Source of the DNA: Escherichia coli | Lineage (GTDB): Bacteria; Pseudomonadota; Gammaproteobacteria; Enterobacterales; Enterobacteriaceae | Reading direction: 5' to 3' (one strand) | Assembly: GCF_050320075.1 (NCBI RefSeq) | Contig: NZ_CP190019.1 | Length of the DNA: 64,000 bases | Shown here: one piece after another, positions 7,767-62,255 of the stretch | How positions within the stretch are numbered: position 1 is the stretch's first letter | Layout: the number at the start of each line of letters is the position of its first letter | Position numbers and translations under genes: made by a program | The notes under the pieces: generated by a model | What the model was told of the DNA's origin: nothing | What the model saw: only the letters and a program-made list of their open reading frames with translations | Database searches by the model: none

Positions 7767-8093
7767 ATGACTAAAAATACTCGTTTTTCCCCCGAAGTCC
7801 GTCAGAGGGCGATTCGTATGGTTCTGGAAAGTCAGGGCGAATATGACTCACAGTGGGCGGCAATTTGTTCCATTGCCCCAAAGATTGGCTGTACACCGGA
7901 GACTCTGCGTGTCTGGGTACGCCAGCATGAGCGGGATACCGGAGGCGGTGATGGCGGGCTCACCACCGCTGAACGTCAGCGTCTGAAAGAGCTGGAACGT
8001 GAAAATCGTGAACTGCGCCGCAGTAACGATATCCTTCGCCAGGCTTCCGCTTATTTTGCGAAGGCGGAGTTCGACCGCCTCTGGAAAAAATGA
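7767..8093 (+). CDS. IS629-like OrfA (108 aa)
   Basis: [50 protein letters not shown]… matches IS629/IS1203 OrfA as recalled. Confidence 0.85.
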
Positions 8094-8507
8094 TGCCACT
8101 GCTGGATAAGCTGCGTGAGCAGTACGGGGTCGGACCGCTATGCAGCGAACTGCATATTGCCCCGTCAACGTATTACCACTGTCAGCAACAGCGACATCAT
8201 CCGGATAAACGCAGTGCCCGTGCGCAGCGCGATGACTGGCTGAAGAAAGAGATACAGCGCGTATACGATGAAAATCACAAGGTATACGGTGTGCGTAAAG
8301 TCTGGCGTCAGTTGTTACGGGAAGGTATCAGAGTGGCCAGATGCACTGTGGCACGTCTCATGGCAGTTATGGGACTTGCCGGTGTTCTCCGTGGTAAAAA
8401 GGTCCGTACGACCATCAGCCGGAAAGCCGTTGTCGCAGGCGACCGCGTAAACCGTCAGTTCGTGGCAGAACGTCCTGACCAGTTGTGGGTGGCTGATTCT
8501 ACTTACG
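8090..8507 (+). CDS. IS629-like OrfB, 5' portion (exon 1, interrupted by intron)
   Basis: [20 protein letters not shown]…QLWVADSTY then reading frame enters intron sequence. Confidence 0.75.
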
Positions 8508-9163
8508 GTGTGCCCGGAGTTCAGGGCGGGCATGGATGCTTAAATGAACCGCGAGTCTGTCTGGAATATTGAACCGGTAACTCACGATGAGAAACCCAAC
8601 AATCCCACCGGGTGTGACGGTGGAGAACCTGAGCGGCAGTGACCTGCGGCATGCCCGCAGGGTGATGTAACCCGCTGACAACGGGGATTGAGGCGAGATC
8701 ACTAAGCCGAGATGATCCTCAAGGTTAAGTACTGAAAGGCTGAAGAACATAAACCCGTTAATCCGCCTCTGTGGGTTGAAAACGTCACCACGGCCTACGT
8801 GATCTGACAGGCCGTGCAGGAGGAACTGGCAGTGATACGTAAGCACTGCCGGTCGAAGGTGTTTTGACATGTATGCGAAACACCGGGGCAGCAGCGTCTA
8901 TCACGCTTGCGTTGCTGACTTCTGCCAACTTGCGGCAAGCAAGGATAAAGAGTGCGACGGGCAGCCTCCTCAGTATGCCTGAGTCCAGGCAGGTAAACCG
9001 GGGAAGGTCAGCGACGGATGTTAAGGGGGCATGGCTCCGATGACGCGCTGGCTGGCGGAGCTTCCGTAGTAGTCCGCGATGGGGAAAGCCCATTACATGG
9101 CGAAGGGAAGCAGTTTGAATGTGTTTGCGACGTGAATTAACTGGCCTAACGAGGTGAAGACCT

Positions 9164-10687
9164 TTGATAATCAGCGAAATGCAACGCAAGCTTGCCACAT
9201 GGGCAGCCACCGATCCGTCCCTACGGATTCAACGGCTGCTGCGTCTGATAACACAACCAGAATGGCTGGCTGAAGCGGCGCGGATCACGCTTTCATCAAA
9301 GGGGGCGCATACCCCCGGCGTTGATGGCGTGAACAAAACAATGCTACAGGCCAGACTGGCTGTTGAGCTGCAAATCCTCAGGGATGAATTACTCTCAGGC
9401 CACTACCAGCCCTTGCCCGCCAGACGGGTTTACATCCCTAAAAGCAACGGCAAACTGCGACCACTGGGTATCCCCGCGTTGCGGGATCGTATTGTTCAGC
9501 GGGCCATGCTGATGGCGATGGAGCCGATATGGGAGAGTGATTTTCATACGCTCTCATATGGCTTCCGGCCTGAGCGCAGTGTCCACCACGCGATCCGCAC
9601 GGTGAAATTACAGCTCACAGACTGCGGTGAAACCCGGGGACGCTGGGTGATTGAAGGCGACCTGTCCAGTTACTTCGACACCGTACATCATCGACTGCTG
9701 ATGAAGGCTGTACGCCGCAGGATCAGTGACGCACGTTTCATGACTCTGCTGTGGAAAACCATCAAGGCGGGACATATCGATGTCGGTCTCTTTCGGGCGG
9801 CCAGTGAAGGTGTGCCACAGGGCGGTGTTATATCGCCGCTATTATCGAACATCATGCTGAATGAGTTCGATCAATACCTGCATGAGCGCTACCTGAGCGG
9901 GAAAGCCAGAAAAGATCGGTGGTACTGGAATAACAGTATCCAACGGGGCCGAAGTACGGCGGTCAGAGAAAACTGGCAGTGGAAACCCGCGGTGGCGTAC
10001 TGCCGCTATGCCGATGATTTTGTCCTCATCGTCAAAGGCACCAAAGCACAGGCGGAAGCCATCAGGGAGGAGTGTCGGGGTGTGCTCGAAGGCAGTCTGA
10101 AACTCAGGCTGAACATGGATAAGACTAAAATCACCCATGTTAATGACGGCTTTATCTTTCTGGGGCACAGGATCATTCGCAAACGCAGTCGTTATGGCGA
10201 GATGCGAGTGGTCTCAACGATCCCGCAGGAGAAAGCCAGAAACTTCGCCGCATCGCTGACAGCACTGTTATCAGGCAACTACAGTGAAAGCAAAGTCGAT
10301 ATGGCTGAACAACTCAACCGAAAACTGAAAGGCTGGGCCATGTTCTATCAGTTCGTTGATTTTAAGGCCAAAGTCTTCAGTTATATCGACCGTGTCGTGT
10401 TCTGGAAGCTGGCTCACTGGCTGGCCCGCAAATACCGTACAGGTATCGCTTCCCTGATGAGGTGGTGGTGTAAATCACCGAAACCGGGTCAGAGTAAAAC
10501 GTGGGTTTTATTTGGTAAAACCAATCACGGCAAGCTCAGCGGCGAAATACTGTACCGGTTGGTGGGGCAAGGCAAGAAGCTGTTCCGCTGGCGGCTACCC
10601 GAAGGTAATCCCTATCTGAGGACGGAGACCAGAAACACGTATACATCGCGCTTTACAGAAGTGGCAATGGCGTTCGCCAGCATTTAA
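9164..10687 (+). CDS. Group II intron-encoded reverse transcriptase/maturase (507 aa)
   Basis: RT motifs including …AYCRYADDFVLIV… (YADD), maturase-like C-terminal region. Confidence 0.85.
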   Translation: MIISEMQRKLATWAATDPSLRIQRLLRLITQPEWLAEAARITLSSKGAHTPGVDGVNKTMLQARLAVELQILRDELLSGHYQPLPARRVYIPKSNGKLRPLGIPALRDRIVQRAMLMAMEPIWESDFHTLSYGFRPERSVHHAIRTVKLQLTDCGETRGRWVIEGDLSSYFDTVHHRLLMKAVRRRISDARFMTLLWKTIKAGHIDVGLFRAASEGVPQGGVISPLLSNIMLNEFDQYLHERYLSGKARKDRWYWNNSIQRGRSTAVRENWQWKPAVAYCRYADDFVLIVKGTKAQAEAIREECRGVLEGSLKLRLNMDKTKITHVNDGFIFLGHRIIRKRSRYGEMRVVSTIPQEKARNFAASLTALLSGNYSESKVDMAEQLNRKLKGWAMFYQFVDFKAKVFSYIDRVVFWKLAHWLARKYRTGIASLMRWWCKSPKPGQSKTWVLFGKTNHGKLSGEILYRLVGQGKKLFRWRLPEGNPYLRTETRNTYTSRFTEVAMAFASI

Positions 10688-10692
10688 ATGGA

Positions 10693-10726
10693 GAGCCGGA
10701 TGCGCTGAAAGGTGCACGTCCGGTTC
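10693..10726 (+). ncRNA. Group II intron domain V (catalytic hairpin)
   Basis: GAGCCGGATGCGCTGAAAGGTGCACGTCCGGTTC fits the domain V consensus; lies 51 nt upstream of the intron 3' end. Confidence 0.7.
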
Positions 10727-10749
10727 GGGGAGGAGAGGCAGGGAAATAG

Positions 10750-11250
<501 letters not shown>

Positions 11251-12497: not shown

Positions 12498-13887
12498 TCA
12501 CCTTTTACCAAAGATGGCCTCAGAGCTTCCCTGAAGCTTTATCATGGCTTCAAGTAGGTCATCTTCGTTCAGTGAGCGCTGAGATTTGTTGATGCTAGGG
12601 GCGTGCCGTCTGCGGGAAGGCTCATCACCAGAACAAGGTAACGATTGTGAGCGATTATTGTCCCGTTTTCTCTGGACCTGACGGGCAACATCCAACACAT
12701 GGCCAAGTCTCTTGTTATCTACAATGGCGACGGGATCAACCTCAGAAAGCCGGTCATAGGTGGAGTAGGGCAGCAGCACGCCATTTAGTCGCAGCTCCTT
12801 ATGTCCGTCAGGATAATGCCAGACATCAATATACTTGCCGATGGCTCTTCGACTGTACTCGTTGTCCTCAATCAGATAGAGCATTTTATCGTATTGTACA
12901 GTCAGATTTTTTGATACCCGGCGAGGCTCTCGCTAGGTAAATTCTGCATCAAGGTCATCGTCTAATGCCAGCGGCCGGTGCGCGTTAAAATCATGCAAGG
13001 GTTCTTTGGCAAAGCGCCGGTTATAATCCTTCTGCAAATGCATTGGCCGCTTCTATTGTACAGATCCCCTTAAGCCTGAGCTCCTTAACGAGTCGGTCCT
13101 GAAGTGTCAAATGAGCACGTTCAACGCGGCCTTTTGCCTGGCTGGTTTCAGCACACAAAGGAGTAATATTAAGGCAGCGCATGGCCCTGGCAAACTGGGT
13201 TTCGCCGGGGCCGGTGGTGGCGTGCTTATTATTGACTCTGAATACGCTGGCTTTATCGCTGTAGAGGATCATCGGTTTACCGTATTTCTCGATATAGCCA
13301 CGTGTAGCTTCAAAATAGGTAAATGTGGACTCAGATTTCACAAACAGCAGGTGCATCAGGCGACTGGTGGCATCGTCAACATAGACCAGGGCAGAACAGG
13401 GTCGACCCCGGTTTTCAAACCAGTGGTGGTCGCAGCCATCAATTTGTATCAGCTCGCCAGTACAAGGACGCCGGTAACGAGGCTGATGAATTTTCGGTGC
13501 GCGTTGTCTGCGGGGAATCCAGAGTCCGGCCTTTATCATGAGACGTCGGATGGTTTCCTTTCCAAGGACCAGACCGTGAACTTCCTCCAGCTTTTCCCGC
13601 GCTAGCGTGGGGCCAAAATCACGGTAGTGCTCCCGGATTATACTGAGTGCCTGATCTGTCAGTGACGCTGGCAACAGACGGTTACCAGTGCGGCCACGAC
13701 TCTGGTTGTTCATGCCAAGCGGCCCATACTGGCGATAACGTTTGAGCAGACGGCTGCAATGACGTGGCGTGATGCCCAGCATTTCGGCAGCCTGTCTAGG
13801 ACGGATATTGCGATCGATGACATCCTGAAGGATTTTGAGGCGATTGATTTCTTTCACGGTGAACATTCCGGCGTCATTTATAGCCAT
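12498..13887 (-). pseudogene. DDE transposase pseudogene (ISNCY/IS1202-like; family uncertain), frameshifted
   Basis: 288-aa ORF (13021..13887) with HTH N-terminus and integrase-core region, followed out of frame by a 128-aa ORF (12498..12884); together about the size of one transposase. Confidence 0.45.
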
Positions 13888-14194
13888 AGAAAACTCCTCA
13901 TCAGGAAAAAGTGAGTCGTTGTCTAGACATAGGGATCTGAGAAACTATAGCCTGGACATTCCTAATGAGCCACAAATAGACATTAGCATTGAGCCTCTAC
14001 AATGTTTGTGCGCACAATCTATCTTATGTTAAATAACATTGAATATTAACTTACTTCATGAAGCTTACTGCTTCTATTTCCACTTCTTTTTCTTATTAAT
14101 CGCTCCCCTAATCCACGCATTCATCTGCTCTACAGGCTCTAAAATATTTTTTCTGAGTACTGAGCACAAACTGCTCCATAAAAAACAGACCACA

Positions 14195-14350
14195 AGTTTG
14201 GGCATGATACTGATGTAGTCACGTTTTATTGTTTTCATGAAGCTCTCTGCTATTCCATTACTCACCGGACTCCGCACCGCCGTGTTCTTCGATTTAAGTC
14301 CCAACATCCGAGCGAACTGGCGTGTTTCATTAACCCGGTAGTCAGAGTCA
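14195..14350 (-). mobile_element. IS2-like fragment (about 150 bp homologous to the IS2 orfB 3' region)
   Basis: Internal comparison: 14200-14350 aligns with 17095-17245 of the intact IS2 in this window (GTTTGGGCATGATACTGATGTAGTCACG…); homology ends abruptly. Confidence 0.5.
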
Positions 14351-14523
14351 GCGGTCGAAAGACCTCCCAGGTAGCTACTCTGCATACCCACTATAATGCA
14401 ACTATTCTCGTGACGTGTGTTTCAGCTCTCCCCCGGCTATGATACGAGATGGTATGGAGAGCCCTTCTGGGGCCACTGCCTGCACCAGATGCAACAGGAC
14501 GCCTGATATGAATGCAATTTCTG

Positions 14524-15717
14524 TCAGGACAGGCGGGTAACTTTCTGTGGCCATGGATCAGGGAATACTCCACCCGACATCCACCACTGAATTTCTTCTT
14601 CAGTCAACAAGCAAAGGGATAAGGCATGTGTAAAATCATTAACTTCAGTGGCATTGCCAATGATAGTCAACTGACAGCAGCGATCGCCAAATCGCCCAGA
14701 GGCTGTGTCGATGTGTCGCTGTAGCGCTGAACGTTCTTCACGAGTTAAATTATTGTCAGTATGTTCCAGTACTCCAGCTTTCCAGTAGCCAATGAGCGCC
14801 AGACTGATGCTTCCTGCTGACTGATTCCAGAGCAGGGCAAGATCATCTCTCCCGGGGAGCCAAAAAAAACCTTTACTGCGATAAACGCCCATGCCCATAA
14901 AGCGGTGACAGGTATCCCATAATCTTTGCGGATGGAATGGCCTGTCGTCCCTGATGACGCGCCATATAAGTTCCTCATTGTTGCACGGAGTATCCATGTT
15001 TCCTACAAGTGCTTCCAGTTCACTGATGAGTAACTCAACACGGTCAAAATTGTAGTCCGGGATCGCCAGTAATGTGCTCAGTTCAATATTTCCCCATGAT
15101 ACCGCGAGCACATCCACGGAGGGGTTAAGTGGGTGTATGGCTTTTGCCACAGCGGAGATAATGTCAAAGGGCAGGCGGTCATTTCTGGTCAGCAGCAGCC
15201 TGTTGCAGAACATGATTTGCTCGGCCAGCAAATTCTCCAGGCCGCGTTTGTTATGCCGGAGATTTTCCTGAAGAGTGGGGATCAGTTTTTTCCCATCATT
15301 GTAATCTTCATGGAGCATGACAGTATCAACGAGTGTTAAAAACGCCTTCAGGCGTACACGTGAATGGCGACGCAGGTATTTGACCAGAGGAAGCGGATGA
15401 CTGCTTCCGGAGGTTTCAATCAGCATCACATCCGGCTTGTTGTGATCAAGCAGGTGGTTAATTGCGAGATCCATCTTTTTGAGGCCTGCGGGGCTGCTGA
15501 TGCTGTCTGCGGTGATACTTACGAAATTATTGTCTTTTGCATCTACAATATCTGTGTTGGCGATCAGCACGCCGTCCACATCCAGTTCGCTCATGTCATT
15601 GACTATGACAGAGACTGAAAGCTGTTTTTCGTGTGCCTGTATGAGCAGGTTTTTCAGCAGAGTGGTTTTCCCTGCGCCGAGGAAGCCATTGAGAATGATG
15701 ACAGATGTTGTTTCCAT
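14524..15717 (-). CDS. COG0523/CobW-like (G3E family) P-loop GTPase, divergent
   Basis: Walker A GFLGAGKTTLL after probable start at internal Met (METTSVIIL, 15717); overall architecture resembles CobW/YjiA-type GTPases; the expected CxCC metal motif appears replaced (SITADSISS). Confidence 0.55.
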   Translation of the reverse strand: METTSVIILNGFLGAGKTTLLKNLLIQAHEKQLSVSVIVNDMSELDVDGVLIANTDIVDAKDNNFVSITADSISSPAGLKKMDLAINHLLDHNKPDVMLIETSGSSHPLPLVKYLRRHSRVRLKAFLTLVDTVMLHEDYNDGKKLIPTLQENLRHNKRGLENLLAEQIMFCNRLLLTRNDRLPFDIISAVAKAIHPLNPSVDVLAVSWGNIELSTLLAIPDYNFDRVELLISELEALVGNMDTPCNNEELIWRVIRDDRPFHPQRLWDTCHRFMGMGVYRSKGFFWLPGRDDLALLWNQSAGSISLALIGYWKAGVLEHTDNNLTREERSALQRHIDTASGRFGDRCCQLTIIGNATEVNDFTHALSLCLLTEEEIQWWMSGGVFPDPWPQKVTRLS

Positions 15718-16451
15718 ATCAGCAGTACACCAGTTAGTTAGCGAGGAAGGCGCTTGGTGGTACAAAGAGCATCCGGATTGAATCGCATAACGTCGACGGG
15801 AGTTGTTGTCGTTTTTCCTGTGAGGTCTCAACCTGCCACAGAACGCACCGGACTTATTGGTATTTAGTCTCCATCAGCATAATTATCACCATTTTTATCT
15901 CCGGGGGAAGATTTGTTCTGAACAGGAGTGGGAGGTGTGACCTCCTGAAAGTAATTACAGATTGCTAGTTGTTGTATTTTTATTCGAATATGTCTCTTCG
16001 TATCAGTGATAGCACCTAGATAAAGTATATTCCGGGAGCGTTATCTGTTCTAGATATCAGAGAGTCAGTCATTTGTAAAAAAGAGAGCTGCATCATTCTA
16101 TTTTTCCTGTCTATTCACCCTGTTGTCGTATCTAAAAGACATCCGTTCCGAGGATGTCGGGCACCCGTTCTGTACTAAGATACATAGCTTTTGGGTCTGC
16201 ACTATTTGGAACCGACAGAAGTCTGTCTGTGATATCCGCATTTTTCTGTGTGCGATATATTCCGAAAAACTTCAAACCACTTAAAAGAGGTGTTTCCGGA
16301 GGATAAGTTCGACCAGGGAATAGTGTTTCCTGGTAAGTGTGGCGGAGCCAGTTCACCAGGAGTATCTTTCTTATCCAGTTATACTGGATTTTATTAGATG
16401 ATCACCCTACCCTGCAGCAGTACGCTGACGGTGTTTTTTTGGAGAACCATT

Positions 16452-16928
16452 ATGAATAACGTCATCTTTGATTGGTATTTATCTAGGCAAAAATTCATTC
16501 AACGTCCACTGCCAAGATGCAACAGGCAGAGTCCTTAACTGTCAGAATCCAAGTGCTCGAAATTATTCGAATTCCTTACTAATTCCTCCTACACAACTAT
16601 TGTTATGGAAGCTTGCGAAGATGCTCACTATATGGCACGGAAATTTTCGGAAATGCGTCATAAAACAAAGCTAATACCTCCTCATTTTGTCCAACCCTTC
16701 GTTAAAATTAATAAAAATGATTTCTTTGAGGCTGAAACCATATGTGAAGTTACATCAAGCCATCAATGAGATTTGTAGCATTAGGAGCTGAATCCCAGCA
16801 GAGGATTCCACTTTTCATCCGTCGTTGACAATGGCCTTGAAAAACGCCGTTACTCACCGTTCTCCTTCACGGTAATACGCAGTTATAGTTGCAGAGCAAT
16901 GTAATGGATCTTTTATATTAAGAAATTG
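16452..16928 (+). pseudogene. IS110-family transposase N-terminal remnant (frameshifted, truncated by IS2)
   Basis: IGIYLGKNSFNVHCQDATGRVL… then, in another frame, VMEACEDAHYMARKFSEMRHKTKLIPPHFVQP…; typical IS110-family N-terminus. Confidence 0.45.
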
Positions 16929-16939
16929 TGGATTTGCCC

Positions 16940-17845
16940 CTATATTTCCAGACATCTGTTATCACTTAACCCATTACAAGCCCGCTGCCGCAGATATTCC
17001 CGTGGCGAGCGATAACCCAGCGCACTATGCGGATGCCATTCGTTATAATGCTCGAACGCCTCTGCAAGGTTCTTTGCTGCCGTTAACCCGTCTGGTTTGG
17101 GCATGATACTGATGTAGTCACGCTTTATCGTTTTCACGAAGCTCTCTGCTATGCCGTTACTCTCCGGACTCCGCATCGCCGTGTTCTTCGGTTCAAGCCC
17201 CAACATCCGGGCAAACTGCCGTGTTTCATTAGCCCGGTAGCATGAACCATTATCCGTCAGCCACTCTACTGGAGACGCCGGAAGCTCGTTGCCGAAGCGG
17301 CGTTCCACCGCTCCCAGCATGACGTCCTGTACTGTTTCACTGTTGAAGCCGCCCGTAGTAACCGCCCAGTGCAGTGCCTCACGGTCACAGCAGTCCAGCG
17401 CGAACGTGACTCGCAGTTTTTCTCCGTTATCACAGCGGAACTCGAACCCGTCAGAGCACCATCGCTGATTACTTTCTTTCACAGCCACTCTGCCTGTATG
17501 TGCCCGTTTCGATGGCGGTACAGCAGGTTTTCGCTCAAGCAACAGCGCATTCTGGCGCATGATCCGGTAAACACGTTTGGCATTGATCGCAGGCATACCA
17601 TCAAGTTCTGCCTGTCTGCGAAGCAGCGCCCATACCCGACGATAACCATACGTGGGCAGCTCTCCGATAACATGGTGTATACGGAGAAGCACATCCGTAT
17701 CATCAGTGTGACGACTGCGGCGGCCATCCATCCAGTCATCGGTTCGTCTGAGAATGACGTGCAACTGCGCACGCGACACCCGGAGACAACGGCTGACTAA
17801 GCTTACTCCCCATCCCCGGGCAATAAGGGCGCGTGCGCTATCCAC
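16940..17845 (-). CDS. insD: IS2 OrfB (InsD, 301 aa)
   Basis: [46 protein letters not shown]… with DDE integrase core. Confidence 0.85.
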
Positions 17846-18221
17846 TTTTTTGCCCGTCCATATTCAACGGCTTCTTTGATTCTTTGAGGAGTTCATTTTC
17901 CATCGTTTTCTTGCCGAGCAGGCGCTGGAGTTCTTTAATCTGCTTCATGGCGGCAGCAAGTTCAGAGGCAGGAACAACCTGTTCTCCGGCGGCGACAGCA
18001 GTAAGACTTCCTTCCTGGTATTGCTTACACCAGAGAAATAACTGGCTGGCTGCTACACCATGTTGCCGGGCAACGAGGGAGACCGTCATCCCCGGTTCAA
18101 AGCTCTGCTGAACAATTGCGATCTTTTCCTGTGTGGTACGCCGTCTGCGTTTCTCCGGCCCTAAGACATCAATCATCTGTTCTCCAATGACTAGTCTAAA
18201 AACTAGTATTAAGACTATCAC
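17838..18221 (-). CDS. insC: IS2 OrfA (InsC) with altered C-terminus caused by 8-bp insertion
   Basis: [40 protein letters not shown]… but ends …[17 protein letters not shown] instead of the recalled canonical …[14 protein letters not shown]…. Confidence 0.7.
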
Positions 18222-38789: not shown

Positions 38790-41700
38790 TCAGTCATAAA
38801 ACTCAACATCACGGACATAGCGTACGGGAGTAATAACAATTTTGTGTTCATCACGCCCTGACCCCATTTTTGGCGGCTGAATAAATCCAAGATTGCTGAT
38901 TAATTCGGCCACTTCCCACAAATCCACGGAGTGAGGGATTTTCCTGAACCTGTCATGTGGTAACAGTCCATGATAGCTCTCATCAGCAAAACTGTTCAGC
39001 ACCACGCAAAGCGCGTCTTTGCCAGCATCCCCGGCAACCAGACAACGTTTAAGCAGTGTCAGGCGCAGATCATCGTCACCCATCCAGGGACTCAGTTCTG
39101 CCAGAATATCTAATGACAGCAGGTAGCTCTTATCAAGAATTCCCGGTTTGTTATCACGCAACCAGCGTAAAGCGGCAACTTTTATATTCATACCGATTAG
39201 CTTGTGACGAAAAAGTTCGCTTGCCAGTTCTTCATCAAAGTCACCCTCGATATAAAAAATATCTTCTGGCTCCTGGGTAATAATCTCAGGACGCTGGGCA
39301 ATAAGGTTACCAAGCAGAGTATTCATCCTGTTAATATCATCAACATTTCCACAGAGAGCATTAAACAACACCGTAAAGACATTAACTGTCGGTGCCAGTT
39401 TTTTCTCTGAACATAACAGTTCAGCATTTCGCAATGGAATGTTTTCAGGCACATCGATAATAACAACGTTTAAATTACTCAGTACTTTCAGTAAAGCTTC
39501 TTCTGAAATGACTGGCGAGCAAATTAATTCAGAAATAAAATTATTAAATATTCCTGTATCATTTATGACTATATCAGATGGTTCAAATTCAAAGTGTTTC
39601 TCATTTACCCACTGAACAAGTTCACCGGAAGTATTAATTGATGTATCATGCAATAAATGAATAATATTATCAAAGGATGGAAAAATCCTGTCATGCTGCA
39701 ACAGCATGCTATAGATATTTCTCCCTGAAGCATTATTGTCCGCACACTCTGAACGATTAATAATATCATCCAGATTATTTATACAAAAATCCATTTTGGC
39801 TATAATCTGTTCAACAACAGTCATTGAGACTTCAGAAGAATTCAGCAATTCAGGAATACGATCAATCTCTTCCGATTCAATAAATACCGATAAAATAAAA
39901 TCTTCTATGTTAGTCCACAGAACTTCTGTTAATTCAGAAATAGCCAGGGACTCGAGACAATGAAACGGATAAAGAGAGAATGACATTCTTTCTTCATTCT
40001 TGTCTTGCGTCAGGCAAAGATAAACATTTTTAAGATTACTGACGGAATATTTGAATAATCCTGCACCCGCAATTTTCCTGATAACAGAACACTTCTCGTC
40101 TCCCACATCACCTGGAATATATGAAACTGAAAGTGTATTATCTTTCAACACTTCAAAAAACGCATCACCATATCCTTTTGGCACAGCAGTAATAAGAATT
40201 GGGGAGGAATCTATAAGTTCACCGATACGTTTATTAATCTCAACCGATTGCCAGATATTTGATTTTTCAGTCAGGCATAACAGGTGTGCCGCTATTTCCT
40301 GAACAAAAAACTTTTGCTCGGGTGTGCGTTCTTCTGACGCACATAAATGTGCCAGCAATCTGTTCAGTATATGTTCATCTGACATAAAAATCTCCAGGTA
40401 ACGCAGGCGAACATACGTTGTGAAATCGTTCTGCATCAACATCAGCAAACTAACCACACGCTGGCTACCCGTCTGACTCAGTAATGCCATTATATTGTTT
40501 TTCAGGGTATCAGGGTCATTATCAATCAGCCATCTGATAACAGCAGGATGTTGAGCATTGTCACGCTGCAGAACCCCCAGCTTTTTGAGTCGTTCAACAA
40601 TATTATTAACGTTATCAAGATGGAATGAGAATGTTTTTTCCGGACCTTTACCAGACATAACATCCTTAAGAAATAAATTATCTGTCTCACTCAGCCCTCC
40701 GGGAATGAAGATTGAGCGATAGGACATGTAATCTGTTGATAAATAACCACTTGATAACAGAAAAAATATAAAGTCAATCTGTTCATGTTCCGACTGAATC
40801 GTCAGGACACCTGTATCCTCTTTCTTCTTTATCCAGGCAACAAAGCCTTCATTTGTCATCTTTTCTGCTATATCAGCTACAGTTCCGGAAAGAATTTCGG
40901 TCCTCAATGACTCCAGACTGGAAATATTATTTTTCACTCTGGTTATATTATCAACAGATTTAGTTTCAATTAAATGGCATCGTTTTTCATACTGCTGCTT
41001 CAGTTTTTCTGTATCCCGCTGATTTATCATGAGAAAAATTTGTCTGTTATAGGGGGTAACGACCTGAATATTTTCCTTATCTAAAAGCATGAGAAATTCA
41101 TCTTCATCTTGTATCAAATCATCAAGACTTATTTGCCTTCCTTCTGTATAAAAAACAAGCGCGCCGCTATAATTTTTACTAAGGTAAGGCATGAGCAGTT
41201 CTTCGCGCAGATTTTCCCGGTTTGCGAGTTTTTCATTTGTTATCGCTACAAGTGACTGTGCCATATCCTCAAGTTCGTTATTTGCAGAATGTAATAATTC
41301 ATTCTGAATTTCATGGTCTAAGTAGCTTTGAATAAAATGATAAAGAACACCTTTTTTACTATCTATACCATGATAATCTTCCGCACAGAGATTTTTATAT
41401 GCTATCATGGCAAGTAGTTTGGCCAGATTTTCCCGACTATTGACTAAATTCTGATAGAGTCGAAACTCATTTGTAATATTATGCATTACACGCATATTGG
41501 GAATAAATGTCGCAATACGAGAAATACATTCGCTTAAGTTATTATTTATCTCTTCTTCTTTGAATTTTTTAACAAAATGCTCATAAGCATTCTGGTTATC
41601 CATCACTGGAATAACAGGCATAACAAAATCAAAGAATTTCGTTCTTGACTCTGCTGAGTTGAAAATACCATCTCTGACAGCATAAATAAATTTTACAGGT

Positions 41701-42611
41701 TTTCTGTCAGAAAGGCAGTTATTAATAATTTGATTGATTTCCCGCAATTTCACGAAAATCCGGCCATTGTTAAAACGGTCAAGATCTTCGAATATCACTA
41801 CATCATATTTAGTCGAATCAAAAAAATAGACAATTTCATCAATATAGACATTAAGTAAAGAAGGTGATGATGCCCGGGTTGTAACAGCGCCTTTCAGAAG
41901 GTCCACTTTATCAAGACTTACTTTCCTGTCAAATATACCGATACGATGTAACTGGTTCAAAAGCAGGCATAACGATCCCATCACAGATGCCACTGCACCG
42001 GACACACGCACCCCAAACGGGCATTCAAGAAGGTAACGGGCGAATGCTCCCGGCAAAGATAGCTTTGTTGTAACGTAATCCGGCGCAAGGAAAAATAAAG
42101 CAGCTCCACTCAGTAAAATGGTTCCTGTCAGAAAAGACGCAGACCGCAATATTTGTCCCGCAGTCACATCTGATATACGGTCAATGCGGGAACAGGGAAG
42201 CTCATGCTTTTTATTTTTGTAGAGTATTTGTTGCAGAATACTGTATTCAATAGATTTTTCAACACTACCAGTATTTTTCGTCCCTTCGTCACTACTGCTG
42301 TCCCCATTACTTTCATCCACATGTCTCTGCATATCAAAATCAGCAAGAGAAACGGTTAACACCCGCAGTGTCCCATTGTGAGCTTTGCACCATGTTTTTA
42401 ATACTGAGCTTTTCCCTGCCCCATACGGCCCGGTAACAGCAATATTCCGGATATCCGGATGTTCATAAGCATAATTAAGCGCGCTGATATAACAGCCTGC
42501 TTTATCTGAGTCGAGTTCTGTCGGAGTCAGTGCTTCATAGCTCACTGCATTTGCCTCAGCATGATCACTATCGGCAACGATCGGTGTCAGCCACGGTGTG
42601 GACATTATCAT
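38790..42611 (-). CDS. KAP-family P-loop NTPase with intra-domain transmembrane helices (1273 aa); function unknown
   Basis: Walker A NIAVTGPYGAGKSS; hydrophobic helices (FLTGTILLSGAALFFLAP, VRVSGAVASVMGSLCLLLNQL) inserted before Walker B-like YDVVIFEDLDRF; about 950-aa C-terminal region without assignable motif. Confidence 0.65.
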   Translation of the reverse strand: MIMSTPWLTPIVADSDHAEANAVSYEALTPTELDSDKAGCYISALNYAYEHPDIRNIAVTGPYGAGKSSVLKTWCKAHNGTLRVLTVSLADFDMQRHVDESNGDSSSDEGTKNTGSVEKSIEYSILQQILYKNKKHELPCSRIDRISDVTAGQILRSASFLTGTILLSGAALFFLAPDYVTTKLSLPGAFARYLLECPFGVRVSGAVASVMGSLCLLLNQLHRIGIFDRKVSLDKVDLLKGAVTTRASSPSLLNVYIDEIVYFFDSTKYDVVIFEDLDRFNNGRIFVKLREINQIINNCLSDRKPVKFIYAVRDGIFNSAESRTKFFDFVMPVIPVMDNQNAYEHFVKKFKEEEINNNLSECISRIATFIPNMRVMHNITNEFRLYQNLVNSRENLAKLLAMIAYKNLCAEDYHGIDSKKGVLYHFIQSYLDHEIQNELLHSANNELEDMAQSLVAITNEKLANRENLREELLMPYLSKNYSGALVFYTEGRQISLDDLIQDEDEFLMLLDKENIQVVTPYNRQIFLMINQRDTEKLKQQYEKRCHLIETKSVDNITRVKNNISSLESLRTEILSGTVADIAEKMTNEGFVAWIKKKEDTGVLTIQSEHEQIDFIFFLLSSGYLSTDYMSYRSIFIPGGLSETDNLFLKDVMSGKGPEKTFSFHLDNVNNIVERLKKLGVLQRDNAQHPAVIRWLIDNDPDTLKNNIMALLSQTGSQRVVSLLMLMQNDFTTYVRLRYLEIFMSDEHILNRLLAHLCASEERTPEQKFFVQEIAAHLLCLTEKSNIWQSVEINKRIGELIDSSPILITAVPKGYGDAFFEVLKDNTLSVSYIPGDVGDEKCSVIRKIAGAGLFKYSVSNLKNVYLCLTQDKNEERMSFSLYPFHCLESLAISELTEVLWTNIEDFILSVFIESEEIDRIPELLNSSEVSMTVVEQIIAKMDFCINNLDDIINRSECADNNASGRNIYSMLLQHDRIFPSFDNIIHLLHDTSINTSGELVQWVNEKHFEFEPSDIVINDTGIFNNFISELICSPVISEEALLKVLSNLNVVIIDVPENIPLRNAELLCSEKKLAPTVNVFTVLFNALCGNVDDINRMNTLLGNLIAQRPEIITQEPEDIFYIEGDFDEELASELFRHKLIGMNIKVAALRWLRDNKPGILDKSYLLSLDILAELSPWMGDDDLRLTLLKRCLVAGDAGKDALCVVLNSFADESYHGLLPHDRFRKIPHSVDLWEVAELISNLGFIQPPKMGSGRDEHKIVITPVRYVRDVEFYD

Positions 42612-55983: not shown

Positions 55984-56803
55984 GGCACTGTTGCAAAGTT
56001 AGCGATGAGGCAGCCTTTTGTCTTATTCAAAGGCCTTACATTTCAAAAACTCTGCTTACCAGGCGCATTTCGCCCAGGGGATCACCATAATAAAATGCTG
56101 AGGCCTGGCCTTTGCGTAGTGCACGCATCACCTCAATACCTTTGATGGTGGCGTAAGCCGTCTTCATGGATTTAAATCCCAGCGTGGCGCCGATTATCCG
56201 TTTCAGTTTGCCATGATCGCATTCAATCACGTTGTTCCGGTACTTAATCTGTCGGTGTTCAACGTCAGACGGGCACCGGCCTTCGCGTTTGAGCAGAGCA
56301 AGCGCGCGACCATAGGCGGGCGCTTTATCCGTGTTGATGAATCGCGGGATCTGCCACTTCTTCACGTTGTTGAGGATTTTACCCAGAAACCGGTATGCAG
56401 CTTTGCTGTTACGACGGGAGGAGAGATAAAAATCGACAGTGCGGCCCCGGCTGTCGACGGCCCGGTACAGATACGCCCAGCGGCCATTGACCTTCACGTA
56501 GGTTTCATCCATGTGCCACGGGCAAAGATCGGAAGGGTTACGCCAGTACCAGCGCAGCCGTTTTTCCATTTCAGGCGCATAACGCTGAACCCAGCGGTAA
56601 ATCGTGGAGTGATCGACATTCACTCCGCGTTCAGCCAGCATCTCCTGCAGCTCACGGTAACTGATGCCGTATTTGCAGTACCAGCGTACGGCCCACAGAA
56701 TGATGTCACGCTGAAAATGCCGGCCTTTGAATGGGTTCATGTGCAGCTCCATCAGCAAAAGGGGATGATAAGTTTATCACCACCGACTATTTGCAACAGT
56801 GCC
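55984..56803 (-). mobile_element. IS26, copy C (820 bp, intact)
   Basis: IRs GGCACTGTTGCAAA; intact Tnp26 at 56036..56740. Confidence 0.95.
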
Positions 56804-61436: not shown

Positions 61437-62255
61437 GGCACTGTTGCAAATAGTCGGTGGTGATAAACTTATCATCCCCTTTTGCTGATGGAGCTGCACA
61501 TGAACCCATTCAAAGGCCGGCATTTTCAGCGTGACATCATTCTGTGGGCCGTACGCTGGTACTGCAAATACGGCATCAGTTACCGTGAGCTGCAGGAGAT
61601 GCTGGCTGAACGCGGAGTGAATGTCGATCACTCCACGATTTACCGCTGGGTTCAGCGTTATGCGCCTGAAATGGAAAAACGGCTGCGCTGGTACTGGCGT
61701 AACCCTTCCGATCTTTGCCCGTGGCACATGGATGAAACCTACGTGAAGGTCAATGGCCGCTGGGCGTATCTGTACCGGGCCGTCGACAGCCGGGGCCGCA
61801 CTGTCGATTTTTATCTCTCCTCCCGTCGTAACAGCAAAGCTGCATACCGGTTTCTGGGTAAAATCCTCAACAACGTGAAGAAGTGGCAGATCCCACGATC
61901 CTCAACACGGATAAAGCGCCCGCCTATGGTCGCGCGCTTGCTCTGCTCAAACGCGAAGGCCGGTGCCCGTCTGACGTTGAACACCGACAGATTAAGTACC
62001 GGAACAACGTGATTGAATGCGATCATGGCAAACTGAAACGGATAATCAACGCCACGCTGGGATTTAAATCCATGAAGACGGCTTACGCCACCATCAAAGG
62101 TATTGAGGTGATGCGTGCACTACGCAAAGGCCAGGCCTCAGCATTTTATTATGGTGATCCCCTGGGCGAAATGCGCCTGGTAAGCAGAGTTTTTGAAATG
62201 TAAGGCCTTTGAATAAGACAAAAGGCTGCCTCATCGCTAACTTTGCAACAGTGCC
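61437..62255 (+). mobile_element. IS26, copy D (819 bp; same frameshifted allele as copy A)
   Basis: IRs GGCACTGTTGCAAA; tnp26 ORFs identical to copy A (61500..62203 region). Confidence 0.9.

Follow-up and report, generated by a model that had tools for sequence, protein, structure and literature searches.

Our analysis identifies a branch of the COG0523 GTPases that carries serines in place of the cysteines of the CxCC motif and that has one of its members on virulence plasmids of Escherichia coli. The gene in question occupies positions 14524-15717 (minus strand) of a 64,000-nucleotide stretch of E. coli DNA (RefSeq assembly GCF_050320075.1, contig NZ_CP190019.1), hereafter called the window, and encodes a COG0523-type G3E GTPase (SIMIBI class) of 397 amino acids in which S-I-S-S stands where CxCC is expected. 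Sequence comparison indicates that the missing cysteines are not a sign of decay; they are a conserved mark of an ancient and widespread sister group of ZigA, here named the SxSS group. The gene context of the relatives ties them, as far as neighborhoods can tell, to zinc starvation and not to iron. On balance, we lean toward the view that the window protein and its group are a zinc-independent version of ZigA that would cycle GTP, be made under zinc starvation, and serve as a partner of zinc-independent enzymes, with the plasmid copy as an excised orphan.

The assignment to the family is firm. The open reading frame (ORF) begins with ATG, and RefSeq has the same coordinates and an identical product (WP_000450494.1, "CobW family GTP-binding protein"); a possible extension to a TTG further upstream (15831) was discarded, since all orthologues begin at the ATG. 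Both Pfam domains of the family were found, cobW (PF02492) at residues 6-203 (E = 2.4e-25; 89.6 bits with a cut-off of 20.7) and CobW_C (PF07683) at residues 254-370 (E = 8.8e-15; 54.8 bits with a cut-off of 22). Among the curated NCBIfam models, ZigA (NF038288) scored highest with 200.2 bits, which does not reach its equivalog cut-off of 600, and the model for the mycobacterial Mpy recruitment factor Mrf (NF047431) was rejected, with 67.2 bits against a cut-off of 375 and a match limited to residues 119-388. A structure prediction, as proposed in an earlier note made from the bare sequence, yielded a confident AlphaFold2 (AF2) model with the G3E fold (pLDDT, 92.1; pTM, 0.89), built from the 76-sequence alignment described below, and the closest structures in the PDB were YjiA, followed by HypB, MMAA/MeaB, and UreG. 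The same note had recognized a COG0523/G3E-like protein with the Walker A sequence GAGKTT. Domains and fold matches agree with it, and the protein belongs to no other P-loop family.

The position of the missing motif was determined with a MAFFT alignment of 76 sequences, 23 from ZigA-like proteins and 53 from the SxSS group. At query positions 70-75, all 23 ZigA-likes read N-G-C-I-C-C, and the window protein reads A-D-S-I-S-S; S72-I73-S74-S75 (15493..15504, minus strand) is, by this alignment, homologous to CxCC. The register is fixed by the flanking strand (LVxL/M) together with the 23 canonical sequences, and the pairwise HMMER register against YjiA, which puts GCICC opposite N-F-V-S-I a few residues earlier, was therefore rejected. 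In either register there is no cysteine at the motif, and a C.CC pattern occurs nowhere in the 397 residues. The earlier observation that SITADSISS (residues 67-75) takes the place of the expected G-C-x-C-C is thus confirmed to the residue. The codons at S72-I-S-S75 are AGC-ATC-AGC-AGC, each serine codon being one base away from the cysteine codon TGC, and the serine codons across the SxSS group are nearly all AGY, which a single base change separates from TGY. Neither chance nor a sequencing error accounts for the motif, because hundreds of orthologues with 50 to 70% identity (from Kosakonia, Klebsiella, Pectobacterium, Pantoea, Erwinia, Brenneria, Pseudomonas graminis, Vibrio, and others) all carry the serine motif. 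It is a sound inference from the alignment that the thiolate-bound, high-affinity zinc site of the ZigA/MigC type has been lost in the window protein. The claim that it cannot bind metal in the usual way hence stands as far as the three thiolate ligands are concerned, which are gone; other possible ligands are considered below.

The remaining GTPase elements are largely in place (all on the minus strand). The Walker A motif or P-loop, GFLGAGKTT, covers residues 11-19 (15661..15687), with G11, G14, G16, K17, and T18 invariant in the 76 aligned sequences. The switch I region V39-NDMSELDVD-G49 (15571..15603, derived from residue numbering) is common to the ZigA-likes (VNDMSEVNIDA) except for D46, where these have an invariant asparagine. 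Walker B and switch II read ETSGSSHP at residues 101-108 (15394..15417) and ESTGISEP in ZigA-likes; within the Walker B stretch M98-LIETSG-104, E101 and G104 are invariant in the alignment. The RxKG "arginine finger" of the C-terminal domain, R280-S-K282-G283 (14869..14880), is invariant in 76/76. The base-specificity motif G4, T177-R178-N179-D180 (15178..15189), has arginine for the lysine of the group consensus TKxD (AAA to AGA), as does one orthologue from Klebsiella variicola; in the SxSS group this position is lysine in 51/53 and arginine in 2/53. The PETEEY linker is absent, with PCNNEELIWRV found where canonical sequences have PETEEYGI.

A search of representative proteins covering 1.84 billion sequences marked the limit of the SxSS group. 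The top-scoring full-length matches, from 491 down to ~165 bits, all lack both C.CC and PETEEY, as do two further matches with 145 and 139 bits. CxCC-bearing ZigA-likes set in at ~150 bits, and the lower full-length matches are nearly all ZigA-likes; those below ~150 bits have NGCICC[TS], and most have PETEEY or a close variant. Bootstrap analysis of the alignment without the motif columns recovered the split between the two groups in 100/100 trees. The SxSS group has a motif of its own, A/G-D/G-S-I-S-S (S72 in 34/53, S74 in 45/53, and S75 in 43/53), and differs at further positions: histidine at position 107 in 47/53, where all 23 ZigA-likes have glutamate; aspartate at position 46 in 45/53 versus asparagine in 23/23; threonine for asparagine at position 177, which turns NKxD into TKxD; cysteine at position 348 in 46/53 versus glutamine; and threonine at position 351 versus valine. 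PETEEY, which is found in ZigA-likes, has been lost from the group. The group ranges over Gammaproteobacteria (Enterobacterales, Pseudomonas, and Vibrio), Bacteroidota, Planctomycetota, and Verrucomicrobiota; its deep members (Verrucomicrobiota, Planctomycetota, Bacteroidota, and uncultured Pseudomonadota) carry generic names only, and the contigs of these deep representatives measure 1.7 to 4 kb, so little neighborhood is visible. A pattern scan of genome contigs with [YH]RSKGFFW and GFLG[AS]GKTT returned nearly exclusively canonical ZigA-likes (27 to 33% identity), the only group members among them being two Planctomycetes loci. At columns that are otherwise invariant, the window protein has 4 private changes and its orthologues have 0 to 6. 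The separate group with its 100/100 split, the shared motif, and the lack of an excess of private substitutions argue together against decay.

The genes around the relatives point to zinc starvation. In Kosakonia, Klebsiella pneumoniae, and Pantoea agglomerans, the SxSS gene lies divergent from a Fur-family gene of 150 amino acids and directly upstream of dksA2, and it is followed in these three island loci by dksA2, folE2, a gamma-carbonic anhydrase gene (cam), and paralogues of thrS and pyrC (thrS2 and pyrC2), with queD2 as an extra in Kosakonia and Klebsiella and hemB in Pantoea. In Brenneria, only the SxSS gene and dksA2 are together and the neighborhood is otherwise unrelated, which makes dksA2 the immediate downstream neighbor in four genera. 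The DksA homologues beside SxSS genes keep one of the four zinc-finger cysteines and are for this reason assigned to the DksA2 type. In Obesumbacterium, the SxSS gene sits, as X, within folE2-cam-X-(102 amino acids)-amidohydrolase (pyrC2), and in a plasmid of Pseudomonas graminis it stands alone, preceded by a Zur box that matches perfectly. The three island loci show a strong enrichment of Zur-box-like palindromes (TGTTATAACATAACA), with, e.g., 10 observed versus 0.44 expected and 12 versus 0.68. Palindromes of this kind also lie ~100 bp upstream of the SxSS gene in Brenneria (1 mismatch), ~43 bp upstream in the P. graminis plasmid (0 mismatches), and upstream of the operon that holds the SxSS gene in Obesumbacterium.

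Some details of the islands deserve mention in their own right. The SxSS gene and dksA2 are separated by a short gap that holds a Zur-box-like palindrome (locus L004, 11226-11240; L002, 11226-11245; L094, 9280-9294; and L092, 9458-9472), and dksA2 hence has its own zinc-responsive control within the pair. Between the SxSS gene and the divergent gene of the Fur family in Kosakonia, Klebsiella, and Pantoea, there is a conserved motif, TATTATTGCAAYNNNATTGCATTA (L002 and L004, about 9948-9975 in both; L094, about 7945-7970), which is distinct from the Zur-box palindrome and may be the operator of the island-encoded Fur paralogue. A canonical ZigA with NGCICCT and PETEEY is encoded in the same islands, a few kilobases from the SxSS gene and behind a Fur-family gene and Zur box of its own (L002, 1671-2894; L004, 3635-4858; and L094, 1998-3218), so that canonical and cysteine-free paralogues coexist in one locus. 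Near two stand-alone SxSS genes there are genes for M24-family peptidases, in the P. graminis plasmid (L003, 10888-11667) and in Pirellulaceae (L008, 11665-12831). Eukaryotic ZNG1 has an M24 methionine aminopeptidase as its known client; the proximity may be a coincidence.

The copy in the window is an orphan between insertion-sequence (IS) remnants. An IS3-family transposase fragment (14074..14361, minus strand) begins 162 bp past the stop of the gene, where orthologues have dksA2, and marks where the captured segment breaks off downstream; an ISNCY-family transposase pseudogene (12498..13887, minus strand) lies further on this side. Upstream, a stretch of 1.2 kb (15718..16939, no strand assigned) holds no ORF over 75 amino acids and has no homology to the upstream regions of orthologues; a terminator-like hairpin on the strand of the gene is located within it at 16158-16138. 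It ends at an IS3-family transposase pseudogene (16940..18176, minus strand), beyond which follow iss, phage lysis remnants, an integrase pseudogene, and then iroB. The iroBCDEN genes are ~6.5 kb from the gene, with iss and the phage remnants between. No sigma-70-like site was found in 14300-16300, no Zur-like palindrome was found near the gene in the window, and tblastn and blastn detected no remnants of a zinc island (Fur-like gene, dksA2, folE2, and others) in the 64 kb, the homology of the window to the zinc islands being limited to the gene itself (14516-15718).

The gene is widespread in this setting. The stretch around it, at 12 to 19 kb of the window, is identical to many E. coli virulence plasmids of the ColV/ColBM type, among them pT28R-2, whose coordinates coincide with those of the window across this stretch. 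Among 5,426 complete E. coli genomes, 644 (~12%) have the gene, with 682 plasmid and 5 chromosomal locations and an identity of at least 99% throughout; plasmids of Salmonella, Klebsiella, and Shigella carry it as well. By far most records have the ORF at full length, and 518/649 records cover at least 80% of the gene-containing query segment. Plasmid pS88 carries the identical protein (pS88137, "putative GTPase") between iss and the ets genes, and its transcript was detected by quantitative reverse transcription-PCR, with fold changes of 0.40 with 2,2'-dipyridyl, 0.52 in serum, 0.64 in urine, and 1.59 in vivo; none of the three ex vivo changes reached significance, and the in vivo sample has no tabulated P value (PMC3438092). 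In the same study, iroB was up 38- to 72-fold, the 72-fold increase being that with the iron chelator (PMC3438092). A study of plasmids from neonatal meningitis-causing E. coli (NMEC) placed the gene in the core genome of plasmids resembling those of extraintestinal pathogenic E. coli (ExPEC), as a "putative cobalamin synthesis gene" (PMC4723317).

How could a COG0523 protein work without its cysteines? In ZigA and MigC, zinc bound with high affinity to the cysteines of CxCC stimulates GTP hydrolysis, and the exchange E258A in the PETEEY linker of ZigA gives a fast, zinc-independent GTPase (10.64898/2026.03.03.709369; PMC12208494). The C-terminal RxKG supplies an arginine finger and is essential (preprint 10.64898/2026.03.03.709369). 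In the SxSS group, the P-loop, Walker B, [T]K/RxD, and RxKG are retained, and the thiolates, the switch II glutamate, and the PETEEY gate are lost. With this core, GTP should still be bound and hydrolyzed and the C-terminal domain should dock on the G-domain, and the sequence changes suggest that the GTPase cycle is no longer driven by thiolate-bound zinc. In our model, the protein would be made under zinc starvation, would not deliver zinc, and would serve the products of neighboring genes as a GTP-dependent switch or as an assembly partner, in the first place DksA2 and next FolE2, gamma-carbonic anhydrase, and PyrC2. The plasmid copy has been cut from a zinc locus by insertion sequences, with loss of the Zur box and of the operon partners, and is now transcribed at a basal level, with no response to an iron chelator, as a passenger of a conserved virulence region.

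Several observations weigh against this model. The SxSS group has gained the conserved residues His107, His195, and Cys348, which might form another metal site, and the loss of zinc binding throughout the group is itself deduced from aligned sequences. The exchange of the G4 lysine for arginine in the window copy could weaken guanine binding. Zinc-related neighbors are absent from 4 of the 10 non-E. coli contexts examined, in which the SxSS gene stands alone (Vibrio, Celerinatantimonas, a Bacteroidota-like genome, and Pirellulaceae), and a scan of the Vibrio and Celerinatantimonas loci found no Zur box of the enterobacterial pattern. In the three island loci, the Zur box comes after the SxSS gene and before dksA2, and it is the other motif that precedes the SxSS gene. 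Finally, the high identity of the plasmid copies can reflect recent spread and not selection.

This last point leads to the possibility that the plasmid copy is functionless, a recent capture from a zinc island that is carried along with iss, iro, ets, and ompT, which would be compatible with the other readings of the group. We consider this possible but rather unlikely. It fits the IS remnants on both sides, the lack of partner genes, of a regulator, and of any promoter-like site or Zur box found, and the silence toward serum, urine, and iron chelator; with plasmid copies at least 99% identical, the intact look of the gene could come from a recent spread of ColV/ColBM plasmids, and the G4 lysine has been replaced by arginine. 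However, the K. variicola orthologue has the same lysine-to-arginine exchange, the ORF has stayed full length in most records without an excess of private substitutions, a transcript is detected, and the gene is reported in the ExPEC-like plasmid core genome (PMC4723317).

The main alternative, which we regard as unlikely, retains the chaperone function and changes the metal: Fe(II), Mn(II), or Co(II) would be held on harder ligands and, under zinc shortage, loaded into FolE2, gamma-carbonic anhydrase, and PyrC2. Candidate ligands would be His107, Asp46, Asp71, the serines, and perhaps His195 and Cys348. The coordinated and conserved changes of Glu107 to histidine (47/53) and of Asn46 to aspartate (45/53), together with the new His195 and Cys348, would make sense in such a site, and the gene lies within or beside folE2-cam-pyrC2 clusters. 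FolE2 and gamma-class carbonic anhydrases can function with metals other than zinc. The use of alternative metals has indeed been proposed for Zur-regulated paralogues (Haas 2009; PMC2770081). However, serine is a poor metal ligand, and the tightest conserved neighbor, dksA2, encodes a protein that needs no metal.

The earlier note had seen the gene in a block otherwise devoted to iron acquisition and had suspected a different function. A role in iron acquisition would be, for instance, that of a GTPase that aids iron handling for salmochelin uptake. The gene does share a plasmid region with iroBCDEN, and one COG0523 member, Nha3, handles iron (10.64898/2026.03.03.709369). However, this role is very improbable: the gene is IS-bounded and separated from iro by IS remnants, iss, and phage debris; it shows no induction with the iron chelator that raises iroB 72-fold; and the relatives lie in zinc loci, with siderophore genes beside none of those examined. 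The closeness to iron genes is a by-product of IS-driven mosaic assembly, as indicated by the IS-bounded surroundings and the missing chelator response, and the link to iron is incidental. The Pfam domain name and the older plasmid annotation (PMC4723317) would make the product CobW, which serves cobalamin synthesis as a cobalt chaperone. This reading can practically be dismissed, with TIGR02475 scoring 80.2 bits against a cut-off of 332.1, CxCC missing, and no cob genes in 11 contexts.

The rest of the window contains a few features worth recording. A group II intron with the ltrA reverse transcriptase/maturase gene (9179-10687) lies inside an IS3-family element (window positions 7767-11250). 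Identical weak side matches in tblastn at about 47725-48012, 50382-50669, 56408-56695, and 61545-61832 are four copies of one sequence, at least two of them inside ORFs of 240 amino acids, and probably belong to a repeated insertion sequence that frames a resistance region. At about 38790-42611, there is an ORF of 1,273 amino acids, annotated as "anti-phage transmembrane ATPase" in the matching plasmid record; its coordinates there differ by ~770 bp, and hence the window is not collinear with pT28R-2 throughout.

CxCC has been called conserved in "all members" of COG0523 (PMC2770081) and "family-defining and invariant" (preprint 10.64898/2026.03.03.709369), and it is said to set COG0523 chaperones apart from other G3E proteins (PMC10642216). 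A phylogenetic study excluded sequences without CxCC before tree building (PMC10642216), and the SxSS branch may have escaped discussion because of such filtering. We found no description of a cysteine-free COG0523 branch in the literature searched, although an earlier one is possible, a family-wide network study being outside that search. Put more broadly, and only tentatively, the SxSS proteins may be a natural thiolate-free COG0523 branch with a zinc-less GTPase cycle that acts as a non-chaperone partner in zinc starvation, most plausibly of DksA2 or else of other zinc-independent paralogues. A cysteine-free branch in zinc islands offers a natural control for zinc gating, equivalent to a triple Cys-to-Ser mutant without the PETEEY gate, and it points to non-chaperone roles in COG0523. 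If the members are indeed metal-free switches, CxCC would not be family-defining, some relatives called "metallochaperones" would be such switches as well, and ~12% of the complete E. coli genomes would carry a protein of this kind on virulence plasmids. The gene is common on virulence plasmids of ExPEC, avian pathogenic E. coli (APEC), and NMEC, for which the annotation "CobW / cobalamin synthesis" is misleading.

It remains to compare the SxSS group with known systems. With ZigA of Acinetobacter baumannii and the ZigA-likes, it shares the two-domain layout of ~400 amino acids; the motifs VNDMSE in switch I, E[ST][ST]G in Walker B, RPFHP, RxKG, and GDR; and a home in the same Zur-type zinc-starvation islands, often together with a true ZigA. 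ZigA-like COG0523 proteins reportedly correspond to "SSN (sequence similarity network) cluster 1" of Edmonds et al. 2021. The differences are SxSS for CxCC, a histidine for the glutamate of ESTGISEP, the lack of PETEEY, TKxD for NKxD (TRND in the window), and a mean identity of ~29% between the two groups. To our knowledge, E. coli YjiA is the only COG0523 protein with a solved structure; it has TKxD rather than NKxD. It is the best fold match of the window protein, with both domains aligned (PDB 1NIJ, 4IXM, and 4IXN; Foldseek E = 2e-14). However, YjiA binds metal at its GCICC, identity is ~17 to 18%, and an overall root mean square deviation of ~20 Å from the AF2 model indicates a different relative placement of the domains in the model. 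CobW (TIGR02475) shares the superfamily and the Pfam domains, whereas CxCC and the cobalamin genes are lacking here.

Mrf comes closer in circumstance: it, too, derives from COG0523, belongs to a zinc-starvation response, and has an altered cysteine motif. It recruits a hibernation factor to ribosomes rather than delivering metal (PMC7431043; PMC2770081) and is reported to have lost GTPase motifs (Haas et al.; PMC2770081). In contrast to the SxSS group, Mrf keeps CxxC and binds zinc, which triggers Mrf degradation. Mrf is a precedent for a COG0523 relative with a role other than that of a chaperone. The zinc-free paralogues, such as DksA2 and the cysteine-free ribosomal proteins, resemble the SxSS group in that zinc cysteines are replaced and expression comes from Zur-controlled loci; they belong to unrelated protein families, and the likeness is one of strategy, not of homology.

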